64,000 nt of DNA from an uncultured Gaiellales bacterium (GTDB taxonomy: Bacteria > Actinomycetota > Thermoleophilia > RBG-16-64-13): the NCBI GenBank assembly GCA_964497095.1, contig CAZCCL010000001.1, forward strand, positions 348-64,347, in the 5' to 3' direction. The position numbers and the translations under genes were made by a program. Shown here piece by piece: positions 6,759-34,556 of this stretch. A model generated the notes under the pieces. It had not been told where the DNA came from, ran no database searches, and saw nothing but the letters and a program-made list of their open reading frames with translations. Each line of letters begins with the position of its first letter. Position 1 is the stretch's first letter.

Positions 6759-9700
6759 TTGTCGTCCGTTTTGCCGCCCGTCGCAGGCGAGACCATCGGG
6801 GGTAGTCCTATTCCCACTGCTGAAGAGACTGCGGGTGGAGCCGCCGCGGCGCCGGTCGATGCGGCTGCGGGCGGATCGGCTGCAGGGACGAGCCCCGGGC
6901 CGGCGGGCGAGACGGACCCCGCCCGCCCGGCCGCCGGCTTCTGCCACCTGCACGTGCACACTCACTACTCCGCTCTGGACGGGGCCTGCAAGGTGGAGGA
7001 CCTGGTGGCTCGGGCTGCTGAGCTCGGCATGCCCGCGCTGGCCATCACCGATCACGGGGTGCTTTCGGGTGCCATCAAGTTCTACGAAGAGTGTCTCAAG
7101 GCCGGCGTCAAGCCCATCATCGGACTCGAGACCTATGTGGTGGACGACCGCTTGCGCAAGGAGGGGATGAACGAGGAGCGCTGGCACCTCACCCTTCTCG
7201 CCCGGGACGACACGGGCTATCGCAACCTGCTCAAGCTGGGCAGCCTCGCCTTCCTCGAGGGCTACTACTACAAGCCGCGCCTCGACTACCAGGTCCTCAG
7301 GGAGCACGCAGAGGGCCTCATCTGCCTGACGGGATGTGCAAGCGGGCGGCTGTCGCGCGCCCTCCAGAACGGGCAGACAGCCGCCGCCGAGGCCGAAGTG
7401 CAGCGACTGGTCGGCATCTTCGGCGAGGGGAACGTGTATCTGGAGATGCAGGAGACCGGTATCCGCGAGTTGGCGGAAGTGAACCCGCGGATGGGGGAAC
7501 TGGCCGAGCGCACGGGCCTGAAGTTGGTGGCCACCAACGACGTGCACTACCTCCGCGAGGGCGACGCCGACGCGCATGACGTGCTGCTCTGCATCCAGAC
7601 GGGATCCCGGCTGTCGGAGGAGAACCGCCTGCGGTTCAACTCGCAGGAGTTCTACTTCAAGAGCCCAGAAGAGATGAGGGCCGTGTTCTCCGATCACCCG
7701 GAGGCCGTCTCGAACACCCTGGAGGTGGCGGACCGCTGCAACGTGCATATCGCGCTCGACGAGATGCTCATCCCCCGGTTCCCGGTACCGGAAGGGTACG
7801 ACGAGTCTTCGTATCTGCGGGAGCAATGCGAAAGAGGACTGGTCCGCCGCTACGGGGATGCGGTGACATCCGAGATAAGGGAACGGCTCGAAAGCGAACT
7901 GGAAGTGGTGGAGAAGATGGGCTTCCCGCCCTACTTCCTCATCGTGTGGGATTTCGTCACGTTCGCAAAGGAGGCCGGTATCCCCGTGGGACCCGGCCGC
8001 GGCTCGGCGGCGGGCTCTCTGGTGTCGTACCTGCTGGGTATCACCGACCTCGATCCCATCGCCTACGACCTGCTCTTCGAGCGATTCCTCAACCCCGACC
8101 GTATCAGCATGCCCGATATCGACATCGACTTCTCCGTGAACGGACGCGAGAGGGTGATCGAGTATGTGGCCGACAAATACGGACGCGACCGGGTGGCTCA
8201 GATCGCCACTTTCGGCACCATCAAGGCCCGGCAGGCCATTCGGGACGCTGCCCGGGTGATGGATGTGCCCTACGGGCAGGCCGACCGTATCGCCAAGCTG
8301 GTGCCCGAAGTGCTCAACATCACTTTGGATCAGTGCCTGCGAGACCCGAAGTGCGAGCTGCGCGCCGCCTACGACGGCGACGAGTTGGTCCGCGAGGTGG
8401 TGGACATGGCCCGGCCTCTGGAAGGGCTCATCCGCCAAGATTCCATCCATGCCGCCGGGGTGGTCATCTCCATGGGGCCCCTCACCGATCATCTTCCCCT
8501 CATGCAGAAGGGGGACGCCGAGGTGGTCACCCAGGTCTCCATGGGGGACGTGGAGAGGCTGGGCCTGCTCAAGATGGACTTCCTAGGACTGCGAAACTTG
8601 GACGTCATCGACAGCGCCGTCGGCATCATCCGAGACGGGGGTCACCCGGAATTCGACATCGAATCGATCCCCCTGGACGACGCCCGGACGTACCAGATGT
8701 TGGCCAAGGGGGACTCGGAAGGGGTGTTCCAGTTCGAATCCAGCGGGATGCGGGAAGCCTTGCGCGAGATCCAGCCTACGCGGCTGGACGATCTGATTGC
8801 GCTCGTCGCCCTGTATCGGCCTGGGCCGATGGAGTTCATCCACGACTACGCGCGCAACAAGCGCGATCCCGAGAGCATCAGGTACGAGGACGAGCGGTTG
8901 CAGTCCATCCTCAGCCCCACCTACGGAGTGGCCATCTATCAGGAACAGCTGATGGAGATCTCCAAGCGGATCGGTGGGTTCAGCCCCGCGGAAGCCGACG
9001 ACCTGCGCAAAGCCATCGGCAAGAAGATCCGGGCAAAGATGGACCGGCTCGAGCCCAAATTCCGCGCCGGAGCGGCCGCTTCAGGAACGTCACCGCGGGT
9101 GATCGATCACCTGTGGTCGCTGATGGAGAAGGCGGGGGATTACTCGTTCAACAAGTCACACGCCGCCTGCTACGCCCTCATCTCCTATCGCACCGCCTAC
9201 CTCAAAGCCAAGTTCCCCGTGCAGTACATGGCCGCGCTCATCTCCAGCGTCATGGACACCAAGGACAAGGTCCCCTTCTACGTGACGGTGGCCAACGAGA
9301 TGGGCATCGAGGTGTTGCCTCCGGACATCAACGAGTCGGTCCTCGACTTCCGCGGCGTGGAGGGGCGCATCCGCTTCGGTCTGAACGCGGTCAAGAACGT
9401 GGGGGAGACGGCCATCCGCGTCATCCTGGACGCCCGGCGAAGCGGCGGACCATTCCTGGATCTGTTCGACTTCTGCGAACGCGTCGACCTGGGCGTGGTG
9501 AACGGGCGGGCTATCGAGAGCCTTATCAAGTCGGGGGCCATGGATTCCGTCGGCCCTTCGCGGCGGGGGATGCTCCTCGTCATGCAGCAGGCGATGGCCC
9601 ACGGCAAGAAGGTCAGGGCCGACGCCGATAGAGGCCAGGGATCCATCTTCGATCTCATGCCGGAGCCGGAAGCGCCGGCGGCCGATAGCCGGGGTGCCGC

Positions 9701-25245: not shown

Positions 25246-26463
25246 ATGGAGCTTGTACAGGTCGATCGGGGACGGATCGAAGGCCTGCGCGAAGAGAGAC
25301 GGCGCGAGTCGTCTCCGATCATCGTGCCCGGCTTCTACTCCCGCCTGGCCGAAGAAGCCGTGGCCCACCTGGTGCAGGAGACAGGGCGAGATGAGGGATC
25401 CCCTGAGGACGTCGGCTATGTGCTTGCGGTCGAGAGGCCCCACGGCGGTCACACACACATCACGCTGGTAGAACTGTATGTGACTGCGGCTTATGGGACG
25501 CGCCTCGAGGACTTGCTCGACCTGGTCCGGGAGCATCTGAAGCCCACCGCCTACCTGGTCCGCACCGACGACTGCCGGCTGAATGCCACCCTCCTTGCCA
25601 GGGGACACCAGGTGGAGGCGGCCGCCTTGGTCATGCTGGCGGAGGAGGCGGGTGGTCCTGTCGAGGACGAGGCGGCGCCAACCCCGGCGGATGCCACGCT
25701 GGCCGCGTTCGGTCTTGAGCATTTGGTCGGGCTTCGAGAATTGCTGGAGGGCGCCGCCGGCGGGCAGAGAGAGGACGGTGGAGCGCACCATCACGAAGGC
25801 GGCGATCAGGCTTCGATGGTCGATCAACTGGATGCCTTGGCCCGGCAGGGACACAACTGGGTGCTGCTGGTGGGCGGGCGTCCTGTGGCCGTGGTCGCCC
25901 GGCTGGACGGAGGAGACGGGAGGCACGAGCTGCTCGACTTGGTCGTCGCCCGCGCCGACGAAGACGTCTTGGCCTGGGCCGTCGAGCGCTGCACGGACGA
26001 GCTGCGGAGGGAAGGCCGCCGGCCTGCCGCGGTCATCGATGCGGCTGAGCCCGCCCGGAGGCGTACCTTTCGAAAGGCCGGATACTACAGCGCCGCCGCC
26101 TACATGGTCTTCTACGATCCCGAGGCCGGCAGACCCAGTGTGGGCACGATGGCGGTGCAGGAACTGCGCGAACTCATGGACGGGCGGGAGCACTTCCGGC
26201 TAATCGATGTGCTCGGGGAGAAGCACTGGCGGGCGGGTCATCTCCCCGGATCCGAGTGGATGGACTTCAGGGGTCTGGCCCGGGAGGCTCGGCGCCGGTT
26301 CGAGGTCGACGAGCCCGTCATCCTCTACTGCGACGGCTTCACCTGAGAGGCGAGCGCGATCGCAGCTGATAAGCTGCGACAGTTGGGTTTCACGAACGTG
26401 CGCGATTTCGCCGGCGGCGTGGGCGAATGGGTGGCGGCCGGCTTCCCCTTGGAGGAGTCATGA
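25246..26463 (+). CDS. GNAT-like N-terminal region fused to C-terminal rhodanese domain; in-frame TGA (26344-26346) in the rhodanese active-site loop (…VILYCDGFT-TGA-EASAIAADKLRQLGFTNVRDFAGGVGEWVAAGFPLEES). Candidate selenocysteine; alternatively a nonsense pseudogene
   Basis: The reading frame continues for 38 codons after the TGA with canonical rhodanese C-terminal residues, then ends at a proper stop at 26461. Hairpin 13 nt after the TGA. ATG at 25246 with GGGAG RBS. Confidence 0.5.
26360..26379 (+). other. SECIS-like hairpin (7-bp stem TCGCAGC / GCTGCGA, loop TGATAA) starting 13 nt after the in-frame TGA of the rhodanese ORF
   Basis: Perfect inverted repeat read from the sequence. Same 13-nt offset as the selD hairpin. 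Confidence 0.4.
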
Positions 26464-27446
26464 AGGACTCGTTGGTGGACGGCGCGGCCGTGGAGCGGCT
26501 CCTGCTGTTCTCGGGCGCTCTGCGCGCCGGTCTGATCGACGCACTGGCGAACGGAGAAGCTTCGACGGTCGAGGAGGTTTCTCGAAGAGCGGAGACCGAT
26601 CCTCGGGCTACTCAGATCGTGCTCGAGGCTCTGGCGGCGGAAGGCGTGGTCGAGCGCCTGCAGGTGGAGCCGGCGACCACAGCGGAAGAAAGCGTCCGCT
26701 ACCGCCTCTCGGAGGTGGGGAGGGAGCATCTTCTCGGCGGCGGTGCGCAGGTGGAGCGCTTCGGTCTGATGCACCAGGTGAACAAGCTGCGGGGCTGGCT
26801 CGAGCTGCCGGAGGTCATCCGCACAGGACGGCCCGTGCCTCGTGATCCGGCCAAACGCGACGTCCGCACCATGGTGGGCGCGATGGGAGAGCGCGATCCG
26901 GCCCTGCTCGATGAGATCGTGGAGAGGTGTCTGGCCTATTCCGGTCCCATCCACACCATGTTGGACGTCGGGGGCGCCGTCGGTCACGTGGCCCGGCACT
27001 TCGCGCGCTGTGGCGTGCGTGCGACCTTGTACGACCGAGAGAATGTGATCCCGTTGGCTCGCGAGTTTCTGGGAGACGAGGGCGGTGACATCGCGCTGGT
27101 AGCAGGAGACTTCACCGAGTCTCTTCCCGCCGGGCCCTTCGACCTCGTCTACTTGGGCAATGTCCTTCACATCTACAGTCCGGCCACCAACGCGCGCGTG
27201 ACCCGGTCGGTCTTCCCGATCCTTCCTCCGGGGGGGACGATCGCCGTCCAGGACCACATGTGGGGACGGAGCCCCCGGGCGGCACGGTTCGCGGTGAACA
27301 TGCTACAGGCGACCGAGGAAGGTGGGGTCCGGACGGAGGCGCAGTACCGTGAGTGGCTGACGACGGCCGGGTTCGTGAAGATCGAGGTCTTGGACCTAGA
27401 GGCGGCCGCGGTGCAGCTCATCCTGGGCATGCGGCCGCGGATCTGA
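26460..27446 (+). CDS. SAM-dependent O-methyltransferase (class I MTase with N-terminal winged-helix dimerisation domain)
   Basis: N-terminal wHTH (…LIDALANGEASTVEEVSRRAE…) and Rossmann MTase motifs (MLDVGGAVGHVARHF…). ATG overlaps the rhodanese-ORF stop (ATGA) with GGAGGAG RBS. Confidence 0.75.
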   Translation: MKDSLVDGAAVERLLLFSGALRAGLIDALANGEASTVEEVSRRAETDPRATQIVLEALAAEGVVERLQVEPATTAEESVRYRLSEVGREHLLGGGAQVERFGLMHQVNKLRGWLELPEVIRTGRPVPRDPAKRDVRTMVGAMGERDPALLDEIVERCLAYSGPIHTMLDVGGAVGHVARHFARCGVRATLYDRENVIPLAREFLGDEGGDIALVAGDFTESLPAGPFDLVYLGNVLHIYSPATNARVTRSVFPILPPGGTIAVQDHMWGRSPRAARFAVNMLQATEEGGVRTEAQYREWLTTAGFVKIEVLDLEAAAVQLILGMRPRI

Positions 27447-27524
27447 GCGGGCGTGGGTAGGTTTACGAAAACGTCCTAGCGGGCAGCCCAGATTAGACTG
27501 TGGCTTCGAACCGAGGAGGTGATC

Positions 27525-27737
27525 ATGGGCAAGGTGCCGGACACGGAAGAGAACATGGCGAAGTGCATCTGCGGGGAATGCCCGTCGAAACCTCATGACG
27601 ACATGAGCTTCTACTGTGCCAAGGGCAAGAGTCGCCAACACGTGCGCCGCCGGGGCTGTGCCTGCGGTGACTGTCCGCTCTGGCCGGCATATGGGTTGAC
27701 CAAGGGTTACTACTGTGACGAAGGTGTGACCGAGTAG
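27525..27737 (+). CDS. Small Cys-rich protein, DUF2769 family (KCICGECP…GCACGDCP motifs)
   Basis: 70 aa with two CxCGxCP motifs plus extra Cys, characteristic of DUF2769. GAGGAGG RBS. Confidence 0.6.
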   Translation: MGKVPDTEENMAKCICGECPSKPHDDMSFYCAKGKSRQHVRRRGCACGDCPLWPAYGLTKGYYCDEGVTE

Positions 27738-27745
27738 GAGCGTGC

Positions 27746-28951
27746 ATGGAGCGATATCTACTAAGGGACGACATATGGTGGGCGGGTGCCATCGATTGGG
27801 ACGTCCGTGATTTCCACGGCTACGAGACCCCGCGGGGGACCACATACAACGCTTACCTGATCCTGGATGAGAAGGTGGCCCTGGTCGATGGCTGCCGGGA
27901 GGGCTTCGGCCCGGAGGTGTTGGCCCGGATCCGCGGCTGCTGTGGCATGCGCCCGGTAGACTACCTGGTCGTCAACCACGTGGAGCCCGATCATTCGGGG
28001 GCGATCCCCTGGCTGGTGGAGCGACTGAGACCTGAGCGGATCTTCTGCTCGAAGCGGGCGAGGGACGTGCTGGGCCTTTACTACGGGGCGGAGACGGTGG
28101 ACGGCTGGAATATCCAGACGGTCGCCACCGGGGACGAGGTCTCCCTCGGGCGCAACACGTTGCAGTTCATCGAAGCGCCCATGCTGCATTGGCCGGACAG
28201 TATGTTCACCTACGTCAGAGAGGCCAAGACCCTCCTGCCCAACGACGGTTTCGGCCAGCACCTGGCCACGTCCAAGCGTTTCGCCGACGAAGTCGACATG
28301 AGCTTGGTCATGGAGGAGGCCAGCAAGTACTACGCCAACATCCTCATGCCGTTCGGGGGACAGATCCAGAAGATGCTGGCCAAGATAGGCGAGCTGGGCC
28401 TGGAGATCGAGACGATCGGCCCCAGCCACGGGGTGATATGGCGCCGGCCCGAGGACGTGTCCCGCATCGTGGAGTCGTACGCTGCGTGGAGCGACTTCCA
28501 GGCGCCGGAGCGGGTGTCGCTGATCTACGACACCATGTGGCACGCCACCGAGCAGATGACCATGGCCATCGCGGACGGCGTGGCTCAGCAGGGAGTGGAC
28601 TGCGTGGTCGCCAGACTCAGCAGCAACCCCCGGTCCGAGATGGCACGCCTGGTTCTCGAGTCCAGGGCCTTCCTGGTGGGGTCGCCCACCCTGAACAACA
28701 ATATGTTCCCGACCGTCGGGGAATTCCTCACCTACATCAAGGGTCTCCGGCCGCGTAGGCGTGTGTCCGGCGCCTACGGCTCCTGCGGGTGGGCAGGAGG
28801 GGCGGTGAAGCAGCTCGACGCGGAGCTCACGGCCCTGGGTCTCGACATGGTGGAGCCCATCGAAGTCAAGTACAGGCCGAGCAAGGCCGAGTTGGAGACG
28901 TGCGTGGAACTGGGCCGGCAGGTGGCCCGCAAAGTCAGGACCACCGGATAG
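27746..28951 (+). CDS. Flavodiiron protein (FprA/rubredoxin:oxygen oxidoreductase type; metallo-beta-lactamase plus flavodoxin domains)
   Basis: …LVNHVEPDHSGAIPWL… di-iron site region. C-terminal flavodoxin-like domain (…FLVGSPTLNNNMFPTV…). 401 aa. Confidence 0.85.
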   Translation: MERYLLRDDIWWAGAIDWDVRDFHGYETPRGTTYNAYLILDEKVALVDGCREGFGPEVLARIRGCCGMRPVDYLVVNHVEPDHSGAIPWLVERLRPERIFCSKRARDVLGLYYGAETVDGWNIQTVATGDEVSLGRNTLQFIEAPMLHWPDSMFTYVREAKTLLPNDGFGQHLATSKRFADEVDMSLVMEEASKYYANILMPFGGQIQKMLAKIGELGLEIETIGPSHGVIWRRPEDVSRIVESYAAWSDFQAPERVSLIYDTMWHATEQMTMAIADGVAQQGVDCVVARLSSNPRSEMARLVLESRAFLVGSPTLNNNMFPTVGEFLTYIKGLRPRRRVSGAYGSCGWAGGAVKQLDAELTALGLDMVEPIEVKYRPSKAELETCVELGRQVARKVRTTG

Positions 28952-28966: not shown

Positions 28967-29566
28967 GTGAGCGTTACCGTGCTCGGCTTGGCAGGCAGCG
29001 CCCGCCGCGGGGGGAACACCGAGACCCTCCTCGACTGGTGTCTGGCGGCAGCTGCAGGGGAGGGTGCCGAGGTGGTCAAGTTCCGGCTCTGCGACCTCGA
29101 ACTTCACGGCTGCCGGGCCTGCGAGTCCTGCTCGCGTGACGGCGTGTGCGTGGTCAAGGACGACATGCAGTCGCTCTATCCGCACCTTAGAAGGGCCGAC
29201 TCTATCGTGCTGGCCGCCCCGGTCTACTCCATGGGCATACCGGCGGTACCCAAGATGGTCATCGACCGCTGCCAGCCCTTCTGGGCGCTCAAGTACGTGC
29301 TCAAGCAGGCCGTCGCCGAGCCGGGTGGCCGGCAGAGGTTGGGGGCGTTCCTCAGTTGTGCCGGGACCTCGTTCAGCTATGTCTTCGACGGCTGCCGGCT
29401 GGTGATGCGCACCTTCTGGCACATGCTGGAGGTGTCGCCGGCCGGAGACCTGCTCTGCCCGGGAGTGGATGCCAAGGGAGACATACTCGAGCATCCCGAG
29501 GCCCGGGAGGTGGCCGAGGATATCGGTCGGCGTCTGGGGCGCGGGCGGGGTCCGCGCACGGGTTGA
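28967..29566 (+). CDS. Iron-sulfur flavoprotein (Isf-like NADPH-dependent FMN reductase fold with compact Cys motif)
   Basis: MSVTVLGLAGSARRGGNTETLL… flavodoxin-like start. CRACESCSRDGVC compact 4-Cys motif typical of Isf. Confidence 0.7.
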   Translation: MSVTVLGLAGSARRGGNTETLLDWCLAAAAGEGAEVVKFRLCDLELHGCRACESCSRDGVCVVKDDMQSLYPHLRRADSIVLAAPVYSMGIPAVPKMVIDRCQPFWALKYVLKQAVAEPGGRQRLGAFLSCAGTSFSYVFDGCRLVMRTFWHMLEVSPAGDLLCPGVDAKGDILEHPEAREVAEDIGRRLGRGRGPRTG

Positions 29567-30025: not shown

Positions 30026-30817
30026 CGGCCGGGGCGGGACGAAGCCGTAGGGCAGCTCCAGATCGTAGGCCGCGAGTAGAGGTTCGTTCAGCAGTATCTC
30101 CTCGATCGGCCCGTCCGCTACGACCCGGCCCTCCGCCAGGATAAGCGCGCGCTCGCACAGTTCGTAGGCGACCGGTAGGTCGTGAGTCACGACGATCTTC
30201 GTGACCGGCAGATCCTGCAGGATGTCGATGAGCTGCCGCCGGGACTTGGGGTCCAAGTTGGAGGAGGGTTCATCCAATACGAGGACCTCCGGACGCATGG
30301 CAAGCACGGTCGCCGTGGCCACCCGCTTCTTCTGACCGAAAGAAAGATGATGAGCGGGCCGGTCTTCGTAGCCCTGCATACCCACGGCGGCGAGTGCTTC
30401 TCTGACTCGCAGGAGGATCTCGTCTTTCTCCAGACCCATGTTGACCGGGCCGAACGCCACATCCTGAGCCACGCTGGTGAGGAACAGTTGATCCTCGGGG
30501 TCCTGGAAGACCACCCCTACCCTGCGCCTTATCTCACGCAGATTCTTGTCCTCGACGTTCAGGCCGAACACGCGGAGACTTCCCGTCCCCCGCAGGATGC
30601 CGTTGAGATGAAGGAGAAGGGTGGTCTTGCCGGCTCCGTTCGGACCGATGATGGCCACCGACTCCCCCTGTTGTACGTTGAAACCGACCCCGCGCAACAC
30701 TTCGGTACCGTCCGGATAGGCGAAATGGAGGTCTTCGGCCTCCACAGCCGGCGGCTTTCCTCCGACCAAGGACAGCTCGGTCAAAGGGTGCGGCCTCGGG
30801 CTCCTCCCGTCTTTCAC
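29996..30817 (-). CDS. cbiO: ECF transporter ATPase (CbiO/EcfA)
   Basis: GPNGAGKTT Walker [17 protein letters not shown] signature, [11 protein letters not shown] Walker B. GTG start overlaps the cbiQ stop (GTGA). Confidence 0.85.
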
Positions 30818-31590
30818 AGTGACGACACCGCGCGGACGGAGACAACGAGTAGCAAGAGGCCGCCGAGGAACACGGCGTCGGTGGTCCGAAAGCGGCCCCC
30901 CTCGACCAGTCTCACCGTGCCGTCGTAGCCCCGGCTGAGCATGGCCACGTACACGCGCTCCCCGCGGCTGTAGCTGCGGAGAAACAGCGCGCTCAACATG
31001 TAGCCGAGGGTGGGAGCGTTCCAGAGCCACCGGGCTCGGTAGTTGCGGGCGGTCATGGCTCGGCGCATGCGCCGCAGTTCGTCGGCGAACACAAAACTGT
31101 ACCGGTACATGAAGCTGACTATGAGCACGAAGACCTTGGGTGTCTTCAGGCGCTCGAAACCGGACACCATCTCGGCGAAGGATGTGGTCGAGCTCAGGAT
31201 GATCATGCTGATCACGCCCAGAATGGCTTTCGCTCCCACGTTCCAGAGGACGAGCAGGCCTTCACCCGTGACCCGCATGCCCCCCAGGCTGTAGCCGCCG
31301 CCCCCCGCTTGGTGGAAGAAGGGGAGGAAGATGGCTACCACTAGGATGAAGGGCAACACCACCAGGGCGCGTCGGAGCACGTGCTTGAGGGGGAGGCGCG
31401 AGACCCCGATCAGGAAGAACAGGATGCCGGCGTAGAGCGCGTAGGGCCACATGGGTAGAGCCGGCGTGGTGACCACCACCACCGTGAAGCCGATGAATCC
31501 GAGGATCTTTGCCCGGGGATCGAGACGGTGCAGCGGGCTTTGCTCCGCGCGGATCTCGGTCAGGAAGGAGTCGGCCTCGATCAGCGCCAT
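30814..31590 (-). CDS. cbiQ: ECF transporter transmembrane T component (CbiQ/EcfT)
   Basis: 258-aa polytopic protein with CbiQ-like features (…LDPRAKIL…LSRGYDG…). ATG at 31590. Confidence 0.8.
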   Translation of the reverse strand: MALIEADSFLTEIRAEQSPLHRLDPRAKILGFIGFTVVVVTTPALPMWPYALYAGILFFLIGVSRLPLKHVLRRALVVLPFILVVAIFLPFFHQAGGGGYSLGGMRVTGEGLLVLWNVGAKAILGVISMIILSSTTSFAEMVSGFERLKTPKVFVLIVSFMYRYSFVFADELRRMRRAMTARNYRARWLWNAPTLGYMLSALFLRSYSRGERVYVAMLSRGYDGTVRLVEGGRFRTTDAVFLGGLLLLVVSVRAVSSL

Positions 31591-31622
31591 AGTGCAGTCG
31601 TCCTCACAGGATCGAGCCGGGT

Positions 31623-32693
31623 CTAGGATCGGCCGGAGGGCCCAGAAGGCGGCAAGTCGCGGATCTCGTCGTTCCTCCTCGCAGGCTGGGTGGCTGGGGT
31701 CATGCGCCGGCCTCTTCCACCAAGCGCACGGCCGGCCAGGACCACGAGCCCGAAGAGTACGACCGTGCCCGCCAGACCGGCGATGGCCGTAGCCACCCTC
31801 TCGTTGCCGACTCCGGGCAGCTGGTAGTCGCCGAGTGGAGAAAGACCCCACGTAGGTTCCTCAGCAGCCGCCTGTTCGAATCCCCTGTCCGCTGCGACCT
31901 TCTCCAGGCCATCGGGAGAGCCGGAGGCGAAGGGCGAGACGAACACCGCCAGGGCGACGGCGACGACCAGCGCACCGGCGACGAACGACCAGAAGCGCGC
32001 CCTTCCACTCATGCGCATGCCTGGTCGTCCGGCGGCGCGGCGCACCGTCTCACGAGGTAGGTCGAACGTCTTGACCAGATCGGGGCGGGTGGCCAGGACC
32101 GCAGCCACCACAGCCGTGGTGATCAGGGCCTCGCCGACGGCTATGACCATGTGTACGGAGACCATCGCGGGTAGAGCGATACGGAGCGGCGTGGTCCCGG
32201 AGACGGCCAGTTCGGCCGAAGCCACGGCCGAAGCTGCGACCACCGATATCCAGGAAGCCACGGCTACCGAGACCAAGTAACCGGACAGAGTGCGAGGAAG
32301 GAGCCTCTTCAGTCCAACGAAGACTGCATACCCGACGAAGACCGCGACCACGCCCATGTTGAACACGTTGGCTCCCAAGGCGGTGATGCCCCCGTCGGCC
32401 ATACCCAAGGCCTGGACCACGAGGACGACGGTCATCACAATCGGGGCCGACCACACTCCCAGAAGTGCGACGGCGAACATCGCCCCCAGAAAGTGCCCGC
32501 TTGTGCCGCCGGCGACGGGGAAGTTGAGCATCTGAGCGGCGAAGATGAAGGCCGCACCGACCCCGAGCAGCGGCACGGTCCTCTCGCCCAAGTCGTTCTT
32601 GGTCTTGTGGACCGCGTACGCCACCGTCCCAAGCGATACCGCTCCGGTCGCGACTGCAGTGGGGATGTTTACGAACCCGTCAGGGATGTGCAT
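31623..32693 (-). CDS. cbiM: CbiM/NikM substrate-capture component fused to PDGLE (CbiN-like) domain
   Basis: MHIPDGF… N-terminus diagnostic of CbiM/NikM. C-terminal roughly 130 aa contains the PDGLE motif plus two TM helices. AGGAG RBS. Confidence 0.8.
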   Translation of the reverse strand: MHIPDGFVNIPTAVATGAVSLGTVAYAVHKTKNDLGERTVPLLGVGAAFIFAAQMLNFPVAGGTSGHFLGAMFAVALLGVWSAPIVMTVVLVVQALGMADGGITALGANVFNMGVVAVFVGYAVFVGLKRLLPRTLSGYLVSVAVASWISVVAASAVASAELAVSGTTPLRIALPAMVSVHMVIAVGEALITTAVVAAVLATRPDLVKTFDLPRETVRRAAGRPGMRMSGRARFWSFVAGALVVAVALAVFVSPFASGSPDGLEKVAADRGFEQAAAEEPTWGLSPLGDYQLPGVGNERVATAIAGLAGTVVLFGLVVLAGRALGGRGRRMTPATQPARRNDEIRDLPPSGPSGRS

Positions 32694-32708
32694 CGCTCTC
32701 CTCTGCTC

Positions 32709-33161
32709 CTAGTCTTCCCGGCAGGCGCTGCAGAGGCCGAAGACTGTGACTTCGCGGGTCGCAAAACCCTGGTCTTCAAGCAAGGTGGTACCCAGGCCTC
32801 CCAGATCCTCGTCGTGCACGTGGGTCACCCGACCGCACGTTTCGCAGACCAGGTGGTGATGGGGGACCTCTTCTTCCACCTCGAAGAAGCGCCGAGTGGG
32901 ACCGAGGTGGGTCTCCCGGACCAGATGAAGGTCGACCAGCAACTCCAGAGTGCGGTACACGGTGGACATGTTGATGTTCGGAAACCGGTCCTGCACCCGG
33001 GCACAGACCTCTTCGGCGCTCATATGCGAGCCGTGCTCGCGGAGCACATCCCATACCAAAGTGCGCTGGGGGGTCAGTCTGTACCCCATCTCGTGGAGCG
33101 TGCGGGTGGCATGATGGGTCACGGTTCTTGCAAGCTTATTGCAATAGCCTTTTGTTGTCAA
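32709..33161 (-). CDS. nur: Fur-family metalloregulator, probably nickel-responsive Nur
   Basis: Fur-family DNA-binding helix (…YRLTPQRTLVWDVL…) and metal-site HHH/Cys residues (…HHHLVCETCGRVTHVHDE…). Directly precedes cbiMNQO. Own promoter carries a Nur box. The start is ambiguous: TTG at 33161 or GTG at 33122. Confidence 0.7.
   Translation of the reverse strand: MTTKGYCNKLARTVTHHATRTLHEMGYRLTPQRTLVWDVLREHGSHMSAEEVCARVQDRFPNINMSTVYRTLELLVDLHLVRETHLGPTRRFFEVEEEVPHHHLVCETCGRVTHVHDEDLGGLGTTLLEDQGFATREVTVFGLCSACRED
33128..33144 (-). promoter_or_regulatory. Nur-box-type operator TTGCAA-N5-TTGCAA overlapping the nur promoter -10
   Basis: Perfect TTGCAA-gctta-TTGCAA read from the sequence, matching the published Nur box (tTGCaa-N5-ttGCAA). 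Located in the nur leader. Confidence 0.55.
33133..33161 (-). promoter_or_regulatory. Putative nur promoter TTGACA-17 nt-TAAGCT (valid only if nur starts at GTG 33122)
   Basis: Perfect -35 hexamer with 17-nt spacer read on the minus strand. Under the TTG-start model the -35 is instead codons 1-2. Confidence 0.3.
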
Positions 33162-33488: not shown

Positions 33489-34556
33489 ATGGAGGCGATC
33501 CCGAGGCTGACCACGCTCTCGCACGGTTCGGGCTGAGCGTGCAAATTGGGCCCCAAGGACTTGGGGCAGGTGATGGAGATGCTGCCACGCGTGGGTGATC
33601 CCGCTCTGCTCGTGGGCGCGGATACGTTGGACGATGCGGCCGTCTACCGCGTGACGGGTGAGATCGCCCTGGTGCAGACGATCGATTTCTTCACGCCGGT
33701 GGTCGACGACCCCTACGATTTCGGTCGTATCGCCGCCGCCAACGCTTTCTCCGACGTCTACGCCATGGGCGGCCGGCCCCTGACCGCGCTCAATATTGTG
33801 TGCTTCCCTTCGGGGGTCCTGCCGTTGGAAACCCTGGGGAGGATCCTGCAGGGCGGGGCGGAGACGGCTCGGCTCGCCGGGGCTACCATCGTTGGTGGGC
33901 ACACCATCGACGACCCCGAACCCAAGTATGGGCTGGCCGTCACCGGCGTGCTGGAGCCGGGCCATGAGCTGACAAACGCCGGCGCCAGGCCAGGCGACGC
34001 CCTCATCCTCACGAAGCCGTTGGGTACCGGGGTGATCTCGACCGCCATCAAGCAGGGGACCGCCTCTGCCGAGGCCATCGCGGCCGCCACCGCCTCCATG
34101 GCGACTCTCAATCGGGGCGGGGCCGAGGTAGCTCGTGCTTGCGGTGCCCATGCGCTCACGGACATCACCGGCTTCGGCCTCCTGGGCCACCTCAGCGAGT
34201 TGTGCCGGGCGAGCGGGGTGCTCGCCGAGGTGTGGTACGACCGGTTGCCCCTGCTGGTCCAAGCAGAAGCACTGGCCCAGACCGGGGTCGTCCCGGGCGG
34301 CACGAGACGCAACCTGGAGTATGTGCAGCCCTGGACGGCGTTCGACCCCGAGTTGGAGCCTTGGCAGCACCTCCTGTGCGCCGATGCGCAGACGTCCGGC
34401 GGTCTCATTCTTGTGGTCTCGCCTGAGAAGGTGCCGGAAGCACTCGAGGCGCTGACGGCCGGAGATACCCCGGCTGCGGTGGTCATCGGCCGGGTCATCA
34501 CCAGGGAGGAAGCAAAGGGGTCCCTACTCACAGTCGGATTCGCCGGAACCGGGTGA
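33489..34556 (+). CDS. selD: Selenophosphate synthetase (selenide, water dikinase), selenocysteine-containing form; UGA-Sec at 33534-33536
   Basis: With ATG at 33489 the N-terminus reads MEAIPRLTTLSHGSG-U-ACKLGPK…, matching the SelD consensus SHGAG(C/U)GCK with TGA at the Cys17 position. The rest is a full AIR-synthase-like SelD body. The ORF caller started at 33546. Confidence 0.9.
33550..33567 (+). other. SECIS-like hairpin GCCCCAA-GGAC-TTGGGGC, 13 nt downstream of the selD UGA
   Basis: 7-bp perfect stem with GGAC loop read from the sequence. Confidence 0.6.

Follow-up and report, generated by a model that had tools for sequence, protein, structure and literature searches.

The gene at positions 25246-26463 of the window (the whole 64,000-nt stretch analysed here, from contig CAZCCL010000001.1 of an uncultured Gaiellales bacterium) very probably encodes a genuine selenoprotein, in which a tandem GNAT-fold region is fused to a rhodanese domain and the in-frame UGA at 26344-26346 is a true selenocysteine (Sec) codon. 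As comparative evidence shows, this UGA is kept among relatives, is paired with cysteine (Cys) in full-length homologues, is followed by sequence that is translated, and is accompanied by a predicted hairpin of the selenocysteine insertion sequence (SECIS) type. A preliminary description of the window had proposed a selenoprotein of the rhodanese loop with a SECIS hairpin, and this proposal is supported by the conserved TGA, the Cys pairing and the conservation of the hairpin.

Reading frame past the in-frame UGA

From the ATG at 25246, a start that agrees with the MEL... N-terminus of homologues, the frame leads to ...PVILYCDGFT and meets the TGA at 26344-26346. The open reading frame (ORF) had been described as ending here after ...ILYCDGFT, as it does in the sequence, and public gene calls also end at 26346 (P0001, 366 aa). 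Past this codon the same frame reads EASAIAADKLRQLGFTNVRDFAGGVGEWVAAGFPLEES until a second TGA at 26461-26463. The continuation to this second stop at 26461, the lack of a frameshift and the overlap of the stop with the ATG of the next gene (26460) as ATGA had all been pointed out before and hold in the sequence. A reading of the downstream part as a separate ORF was rejected, as this part lacks a start codon of its own and continues the upstream frame without a break.

Only with the TGA read through does the protein match positions 2-101 of the 102 positions of the Pfam Rhodanese profile (residues 304-397, E 1.8e-12). The assignment as a rhodanese homology domain (PF00581) draws both on this match, which exceeds the gathering score, and on the fold. 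The preliminary description had thus rightly recognised the read-through peptide as the conserved C-terminal part of a rhodanese, the profile being completed to position 101 of 102, and had correctly placed the TGA five residues after the catalytic Cys (C+5) within the active-site loop (C-D-G-F-T-U-E-A-S).

Conservation of the UGA and pairing with Cys

A search of 5.8 billion predicted proteins, using the read-through protein with Cys in place of Sec as the query, retrieved about 100 family members of 34-100% identity. In the protein databases, 92 homologues (34-88% identity) stop exactly at the UGA codon with ...YC[NDS]G[FY]T, and five full-length homologues carry Cys at the site (P0010, P0011, P0023, P0024 and P0076). 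The latter read ...YCNGFxC-EA[GS]xIAADKLRQLGF..., with TGT or TGC as the Cys codon. Judged by their sequences, the UGA-ending and the Cys-containing homologues are a classic Sec/Cys pair.

Genomes were scanned, one per species, with peptide motifs far upstream of the UGA site, which yielded 29 loci, all of them in metagenome-assembled genomes of Actinomycetota labelled Thermoleophilia, Gaiellales or 'Actinomycetes'. Every Sec-type locus that could be read through the site (26 of 26) has TGA there and none has TAA or TAG, and one further locus, L021, has TGT. Locus L029 stands outside the 26, as its contig ends a few codons past its TGA and leaves the downstream frame unreadable. The preliminary description had made much depend on whether orthologues carry Cys, Arg or TGA at this position; the site is TGA in all 26 Sec-type loci or else a Cys codon (TGT/TGC), and never Arg (CGA).

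In the 26 Sec-type loci the 38 codons after the TGA stay in frame, with conserved residues written in varied codons: Gly at +14 is encoded by GGT, GGC, GGG and GGA, and Val at +18 by four codons. Invariant residues with varied codons indicate that the frame past the TGA is translated. The related loci are 72-86% identical to the window gene at the DNA level. In metagenomes, the same TGA is found in a contig that is 99.9% identical to the window gene, although its independence from this assembly is not established, and also in contigs that are only ~80% DNA-identical, which together exclude a read error or a recent nonsense mutation. In all, 33 metagenome contigs, the 99.9% identical one included, show the TGA and the hairpin, every one in this rhodanese-GNAT family; having been retrieved by the hairpin sequence itself, they are uninformative on hairpin conservation and do show that the element is confined to the family.

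Two of the related loci (L023 and L028) are frameshifted in the rhodanese part, upstream of the UGA site, and could be either indels of long-read assemblies or real pseudogenes.

The predicted SECIS hairpin

The hairpin at 26360-26379 has a folding energy of -13.9 kcal/mol (z = -5.4) that was matched by none of 200 dinucleotide shuffles; its 50-nt context gives z = -3.1. A hairpin beginning 13 nt after the TGA had been noted before, and this start is correct, while the 7-bp stem and 6-nt loop given for it are replaced here by an 8-bp stem closed by a GAUA tetraloop. Published criteria for bacterial SECIS elements are a loop of 3-9 nt on a stem of 4-16 bp and a G within the first two loop positions (PMC13188914), together with a UGA-to-loop distance of 16-37 nt and a minimum free energy of -7.5 kcal/mol or lower (PMC13188914, 2026 review). 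With its 4-nt loop and 8-bp stem, G in first loop position, a distance of 21 nt and -13.9 kcal/mol, the hairpin lies within all four limits, so that the comparison with a bacterial SECIS model suggested in the preliminary description comes out in its favour.

Across the 26 loci, synonymous sites are frozen where the stem would form. Counted after the TGA, codon +5 is ATC, +8 GAT, +9 AAG and +11 CGA in all 26, and +10 is CTG and +12 CAG in 25 of 26, as compared with a third-position entropy of 1.3-1.8 bits at flanking invariant residues. At codon +6, 23 of the 26 loci have A or G in third position, either of which pairs with the opposite U, and the third base of codon +7 sets the loop at 4 or 6 nt. 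Comparative evidence shows the predicted hairpin to be under selection at the nucleotide (RNA) level, an argument that relies on these frozen synonymous sites and on the decay of the hairpin in Cys forms.

Selenium machinery in the window

The window also encodes a selenophosphate synthetase (selD) with an in-frame UGA of its own. The preliminary description had drawn attention to a Sec-type SelD about 7 kb away with a hairpin at the same offset, and both points were confirmed: the selD TGA lies 7.19 kb downstream of the rhodanese TGA, and its hairpin likewise starts 13 nt after the TGA (7-bp stem, loop GGAC, 20 nt from UGA to loop, -12.6 kcal/mol). The two elements of this genome share the 13-nt spacer, an uninterrupted stem of 7-8 bp and a 4-nt loop starting with G, but they differ in sequence, with GGAC in one loop and GAUA in the other. 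Common geometry without common sequence is to be expected of hairpins that share a SelB, and presumably one and the same SelB reads both. L004, L021 and L030 all keep the selD TGA, and some of these genomes now encode a Cys form of the rhodanese protein.

When the window was screened for other in-frame TGA read-through candidates, only the rhodanese-GNAT gene and selD proved convincing. Neither tRNA-Sec nor any RNA family was detected by ARAGORN and Rfam in the window or by ARAGORN in 32 related loci. A reassignment of UGA in the genetic code was rejected, since the stop of the gene itself and those of many other genes are TGA.

Alternative explanations

One nucleotide change would suffice to make the codon (CGA or TGC to TGA), and the preliminary description had accordingly left room for a CGA-to-TGA pseudogene or a sequencing error, in which case the mutation would be recent and the protein dead or accidentally cut. 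The frameshifted appearance of L023 and L028 would fit such an origin. The comparative data refute it, and virtually no credence can be given to it: the same TGA recurs in 26 of 26 genome loci and in 33 metagenome contigs over ~33-88% protein identity, including the 99.9% identical contig, purifying selection acts on the downstream frame, Arg is found at the site in no orthologue, and the 72-86% DNA identity of the related loci rules out copies of one contaminant.

If the UGA were instead a true stop, the product would be a 366-residue protein with a cut rhodanese, and the conservation downstream would need another cause, for instance a regulatory RNA element of the coupled methyltransferase gene, whose start lies ~80 nt downstream of the hairpin. 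All public gene calls end at the UGA, and some truncated product is to be expected regardless, as Sec insertion is never fully efficient. However, the 38 downstream codons are conserved in a codon-position-specific manner in the rhodanese frame and complete a Pfam domain, the Cys-form homologues translate through the site, and, judging from the modelled fold, a rhodanese cut in its active-site loop would lose two helices and a strand, which makes a true stop very improbable. Read-through with a residue other than Sec (e.g. Trp, Cys or Gly), through near-cognate or suppressor decoding promoted by the hairpin, is likewise a poor fit. Downstream hairpins can promote stop-codon read-through, and neither SelB nor tRNA-Sec was found in the window and fetched flanks, but full-length homologues invariably have Cys, the classic partner of Sec, at the aligned position, the hairpin has the same geometry as the selD SECIS in this genome and conforms to the model for bacterial SECIS elements, and the SelD with which the genome makes selenophosphate itself depends on Sec. 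Decoding as a residue other than Sec is therefore highly unlikely, and insertion of Sec remains the preferred reading.

Several observations nevertheless weigh against a selenoprotein or limit what can be said of it. Pfam searches of neighbouring genes and ARAGORN found no selA, selB or tRNA-Sec within the window or fetched flanks, and we infer the Sec machinery of the host solely from the Sec-type selD. The stem hardly varies and shows almost no compensatory covariation, so that covariation is uninformative, and the peptide IAADKLRQ is invariant in Cys forms too, which means that its conservation is partly at the protein level. Two Cys forms (L030 and L032) retain an intact hairpin, and the GAUA loop deviates from the commonest G[G/U] loop pattern. 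On the protein side, inspection by eye showed no acetyl-CoA pyrophosphate-binding loop of the usual kind (Q/R-x-x-G-x-G/A) in either GNAT half (a stand-alone relative, P0139, has RGRGVG), and we infer the biochemical role purely from fold, motif and neighbours.

Active site and protein architecture

The active-site loop has a two-residue insertion compared with solved rhodaneses, which puts the position of the canonical Arg at C+7 and not at C+5. The statement in the preliminary description that C+5 is often Arg does not apply to this loop. In length the loop equals that of C-x4-C rhodaneses such as P0114 (YCRGPHCVLA) and P0118 (YCSNISCPVA); in the alignment the canonical Arg position falls on C+7, and C+5 on the second Cys of these proteins. 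Based on this match in length, Sec367 replaces a second Cys rather than the Arg of the canonical loop. P0114, an ArsR/HTH-rhodanese fusion, and the 157-residue P0118 have a loop of the same length between the catalytic Cys and the G-F of the following strand, with the second Cys exactly where Sec stands in the rhodanese-GNAT protein, and look like Cys-type structural relatives of its active site, although they are only ~35-37% identical within the rhodanese domain, contain no Sec, have other partner domains and belong to other phyla.

AlphaFold2 gave a confident model for P0010, a natural Cys form (predicted local distance difference test 90.9, predicted template modelling score 0.81), with a GNAT fold in the N-terminal region. 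This region has no Pfam match, acetyltransferase families included, and only 19 relatives among 1.84 billion representative proteins. The tandem GNAT proteins 3iwg (Colwellia, uncharacterised), the mycothiol synthase MshD (1ozp), ORF14 (2wpw) and MAB_4324 (7q3a) share only 11-14% identity with it. Near-invariant alignment columns of the GNAT region are H66, H69, H71, T73, E76, E88, D89, D108 and C110. The HxxHxH..E cluster and the TDDC motif may form a metal or substrate site in the GNAT module. To our knowledge, neither has a known counterpart in tandem GNAT proteins.

A natural variant (P0016/L055) reads YSSGFT-U, with Ser in place of the canonical Cys and with the UGA and the hairpin intact. 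This may hint that Sec is essential, or may reflect an assembly error. Because this variant has Ser at the Cys position and keeps Sec, it is Sec, and not the canonical Cys, that could be the essential nucleophile.

Cys forms and decay of the hairpin

The preliminary description had also singled out conservation of the hairpin among orthologues as informative. The synonymous sites are kept in the TGA loci, and among the four Cys-form lineages examined the hairpin is decayed or destroyed in two and intact in two. In L021 the peptide IAADKLRQ is encoded by ATCGCCGCCGACAAGCTGAGGCAA and no hairpin is left (-4.0 kcal/mol, z 0.09), in L034 it is half decayed through two changes (GAC, CTC; -7.2 kcal/mol), and in L030 and L032 it is intact at about -13 kcal/mol.

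The closest relatives of each Cys form are Sec forms (P0010-P0013 78%, P0011-P0013 71%, P0076-P0086 71%), which implies at least three separate origins of Cys from Sec ancestors. Sec is the ancestral state of the family, and the hairpins of the Cys forms resemble fossil SECIS elements that have decayed to different degrees. For the study of SECIS evolution this represents a natural series, from elements frozen in the Sec forms to intact, half-decayed and erased ones in independent Cys forms.

Three Cys-form loci (L021, L030/L031 and L034) lack the flavodiiron gene between the DUF2769 gene and the flavin mononucleotide (FMN) reductase gene, a gene that all Sec-form loci with sufficient downstream sequence retain. 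In a fourth Cys form, L032, the flavodiiron gene is present and the methyltransferase is absent. Perhaps Sec and a diiron partner may have been lost together in Cys forms, in what is a small sample.

Relation to known rhodanese selenoproteins

Rhodanese sulfurtransferases had been named beforehand as a known kind of bacterial selenoprotein, in agreement with five published forms, with the motifs UxxS, UxxG, CxU (NF041203), UxxG and, in TsoB, UxxxxU (NF045694) (PMC13188914, PMC9312934). Forms 1-4 have Sec within or beside the active-site loop of the rhodanese domain, and their prediction had been based on Sec/Cys pairs together with SECIS elements. The label of a candidate new selenoprotein was also fair, as the family matches no curated selenoprotein model. 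Against NF041203 the protein scores 39.3 bits with a cut-off of 115, and its motif is C-x4-U and not C-x-U, which places it outside that family. Against NF045694 it scores 29.3 bits with a cut-off of 805, in the rhodanese part only, and with one Sec and a tandem GNAT partner it also falls outside TsoB.

Form 3 (NF041203, LYCAU) has Sec at C+2 of its rhodanese domain in contrast to C+5 here. TsoB (form 5) is similarly a rhodanese selenoprotein and has the same x4 spacing in UxxxxU, but it carries two Sec, a DsbD-like membrane module and another operon, whereas here a Cys comes first and Sec is single; the two motifs are compared here by spacing. In forms 2 and 4 (UxxG), Sec is seemingly at the catalytic Cys, going by the motif alone, which resembles the start of C-x-x-G. 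The U-E-A-S of the present protein fits the UxxS motif of form 1 (WP_010941598.1, a rhodanese-like domain-containing protein of Geobacter) as compared by description only, and the Sec site is possibly common to this single-domain form. A search with the rhodanese domain alone gave only four matches and was no help in placing form 1.

No GNAT or acetyltransferase selenoprotein is mentioned in the review PMC13188914, and no mention of Thermoleophilia or Gaiellales was found in the selenoprotein literature searched. While rhodanese selenoproteins themselves are already known, the family, its architecture and its lineage are new, and the position of Sec is probably new as well. Both the Sec at C+5 in an enlarged rhodanese loop and the tandem GNAT-rhodanese fusion are missing from curated models. 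For annotation, this adds a well-supported family of ~100 sequence clusters, essentially all of which are mis-annotated as truncated 'hypothetical' or 'rhodanese-like' proteins; public records list members in truncated form (e.g. HEY5529186.1, 361 aa). As the family sits in Thermoleophilia and Gaiellales, which are abundant and poorly studied soil Actinomycetota, a family profile would fix public gene calls.

Genomic context and possible role

In 28 of 29 genome loci the methyltransferase gene adjoins the gene for the selenoprotein, the remaining locus being cut off by the end of its contig, and in the window it is followed by genes for a small Cys-rich DUF2769 protein, a protein of the flavodiiron type and an FMN reductase (Table 1). 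The flavodiiron gene is kept in most loci, including relatives that are ~33% identical, and in close relatives synteny reaches as far as glutamate dehydrogenase, a PPDK-like response regulator, CbiMQ, Fur and selD. The operon of methyltransferase, DUF2769, flavodiiron and sometimes rubrerythrin genes suggests a redox or oxidative-stress module.

Table 1 Features of the selenoprotein locus and its surroundings in the window (CDS, coding sequence; SAM, S-adenosylmethionine).
Feature	Position	Strand	Remarks
Hydrophobic ORF, 142 residues	24734-25162	-	Divergent, just upstream of the selenoprotein gene; no Pfam match; kept in closer relatives (56-75% identity)
Selenoprotein (predicted), full CDS	25246-26463	+	405 residues including Sec367; stop TGA 26461-26463
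Tandem GNAT-fold N-terminal region	25246-26130	+	~295 residues; conserved HxxHxH..E and TDDC motifs; no canonical RxxGxG/A acetyl-CoA loop seen by eye
Rhodanese homology domain	26155-26436	+	Residues 304-397; Sec codon falls inside
Canonical rhodanese catalytic Cys codon (Cys362)	26329-26331	+	>=90% kept in 83 homologues; aligns with catalytic Cys of solved rhodaneses
UGA, predicted Sec367 codon	26344-26346	+	Cys362 plus five residues (C-D-G-F-T-U-E-A-S)
SECIS hairpin (predicted)	26360-26379	+	8-bp stem UCGCAGCU/AGCUGCGA, GAUA loop; encodes I-A-A-D-K-L-R
SAM methyltransferase, O-methyltransferase type with winged-helix dimerisation domain	26460-27446	+	Pfam PF00891, PF08100; translationally coupled
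DUF2769 small Cys-rich protein	27519-27737	+	Pfam PF10967, E 1e-12; in many related loci
Flavodiiron-type protein (ODP metallo-beta-lactamase and flavodoxin domains)	27746-28951	+	Pfam PF19583, PF00258
NADPH-dependent FMN reductase	28967-29566	+	Pfam PF03358; kept in closer relatives
CbiQ, CbiM (with PDGLE domain), Fur-family regulator	30814-33161	-	Directly upstream of selD; arrangement kept in L021 and L030
selD (selenophosphate synthetase)	33489-34556	+	In-frame UGA 33534-33536 in GSG-U-ACKLGP; predicted SECIS 33550-33567

As a mechanism, the hairpin at 26360-26379 would recruit SelB with Sec-tRNA(Sec), allowing the ribosome to complete the 405-residue protein. Cys362 and Sec367 could then form a redox-active selenenylsulfide or a pair that handles (per)sulfide, sulfane sulfur or selenium, with the GNAT module binding a substrate or partner, and the enzyme may work with the methyltransferase, DUF2769, flavodiiron, rubrerythrin and FMN reductase proteins in thiol/persulfide or oxidative-stress chemistry. 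A more far-reaching interpretation, which we consider doubtful but conceivable, is that of a new class of selenoenzyme of soil and sediment Actinomycetota, in which a Cys-x4-Sec selenenylsulfide centre, set in an enlarged rhodanese loop and coupled to a degenerate tandem GNAT scaffold that bears a conserved His/Cys cluster, would carry out a reaction new to rhodaneses within a module for defence against O2 and peroxide. Such an enzyme might, for example, reduce or transfer a persulfide, a perselenide or a low-molecular-weight thiol conjugate that is then methylated by the coupled methyltransferase. The conserved link to flavodiiron, rubrerythrin and methyltransferase genes offers testable hypotheses on selenium-dependent redox defence in soil bacteria.

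In a distant operon (L026, ~33% identity), a rubrerythrin gene (8505-9104) lies between the methyltransferase and DUF2769 genes, which adds to the oxidative-stress character of the cluster. The DUF2769 protein of the window weakly matches TIGR04135, a family of radical-SAM-modified Cys-rich peptides (E 0.0013, 18.7 bits with a cut-off of 45), and this match probably reflects Cys-richness alone.

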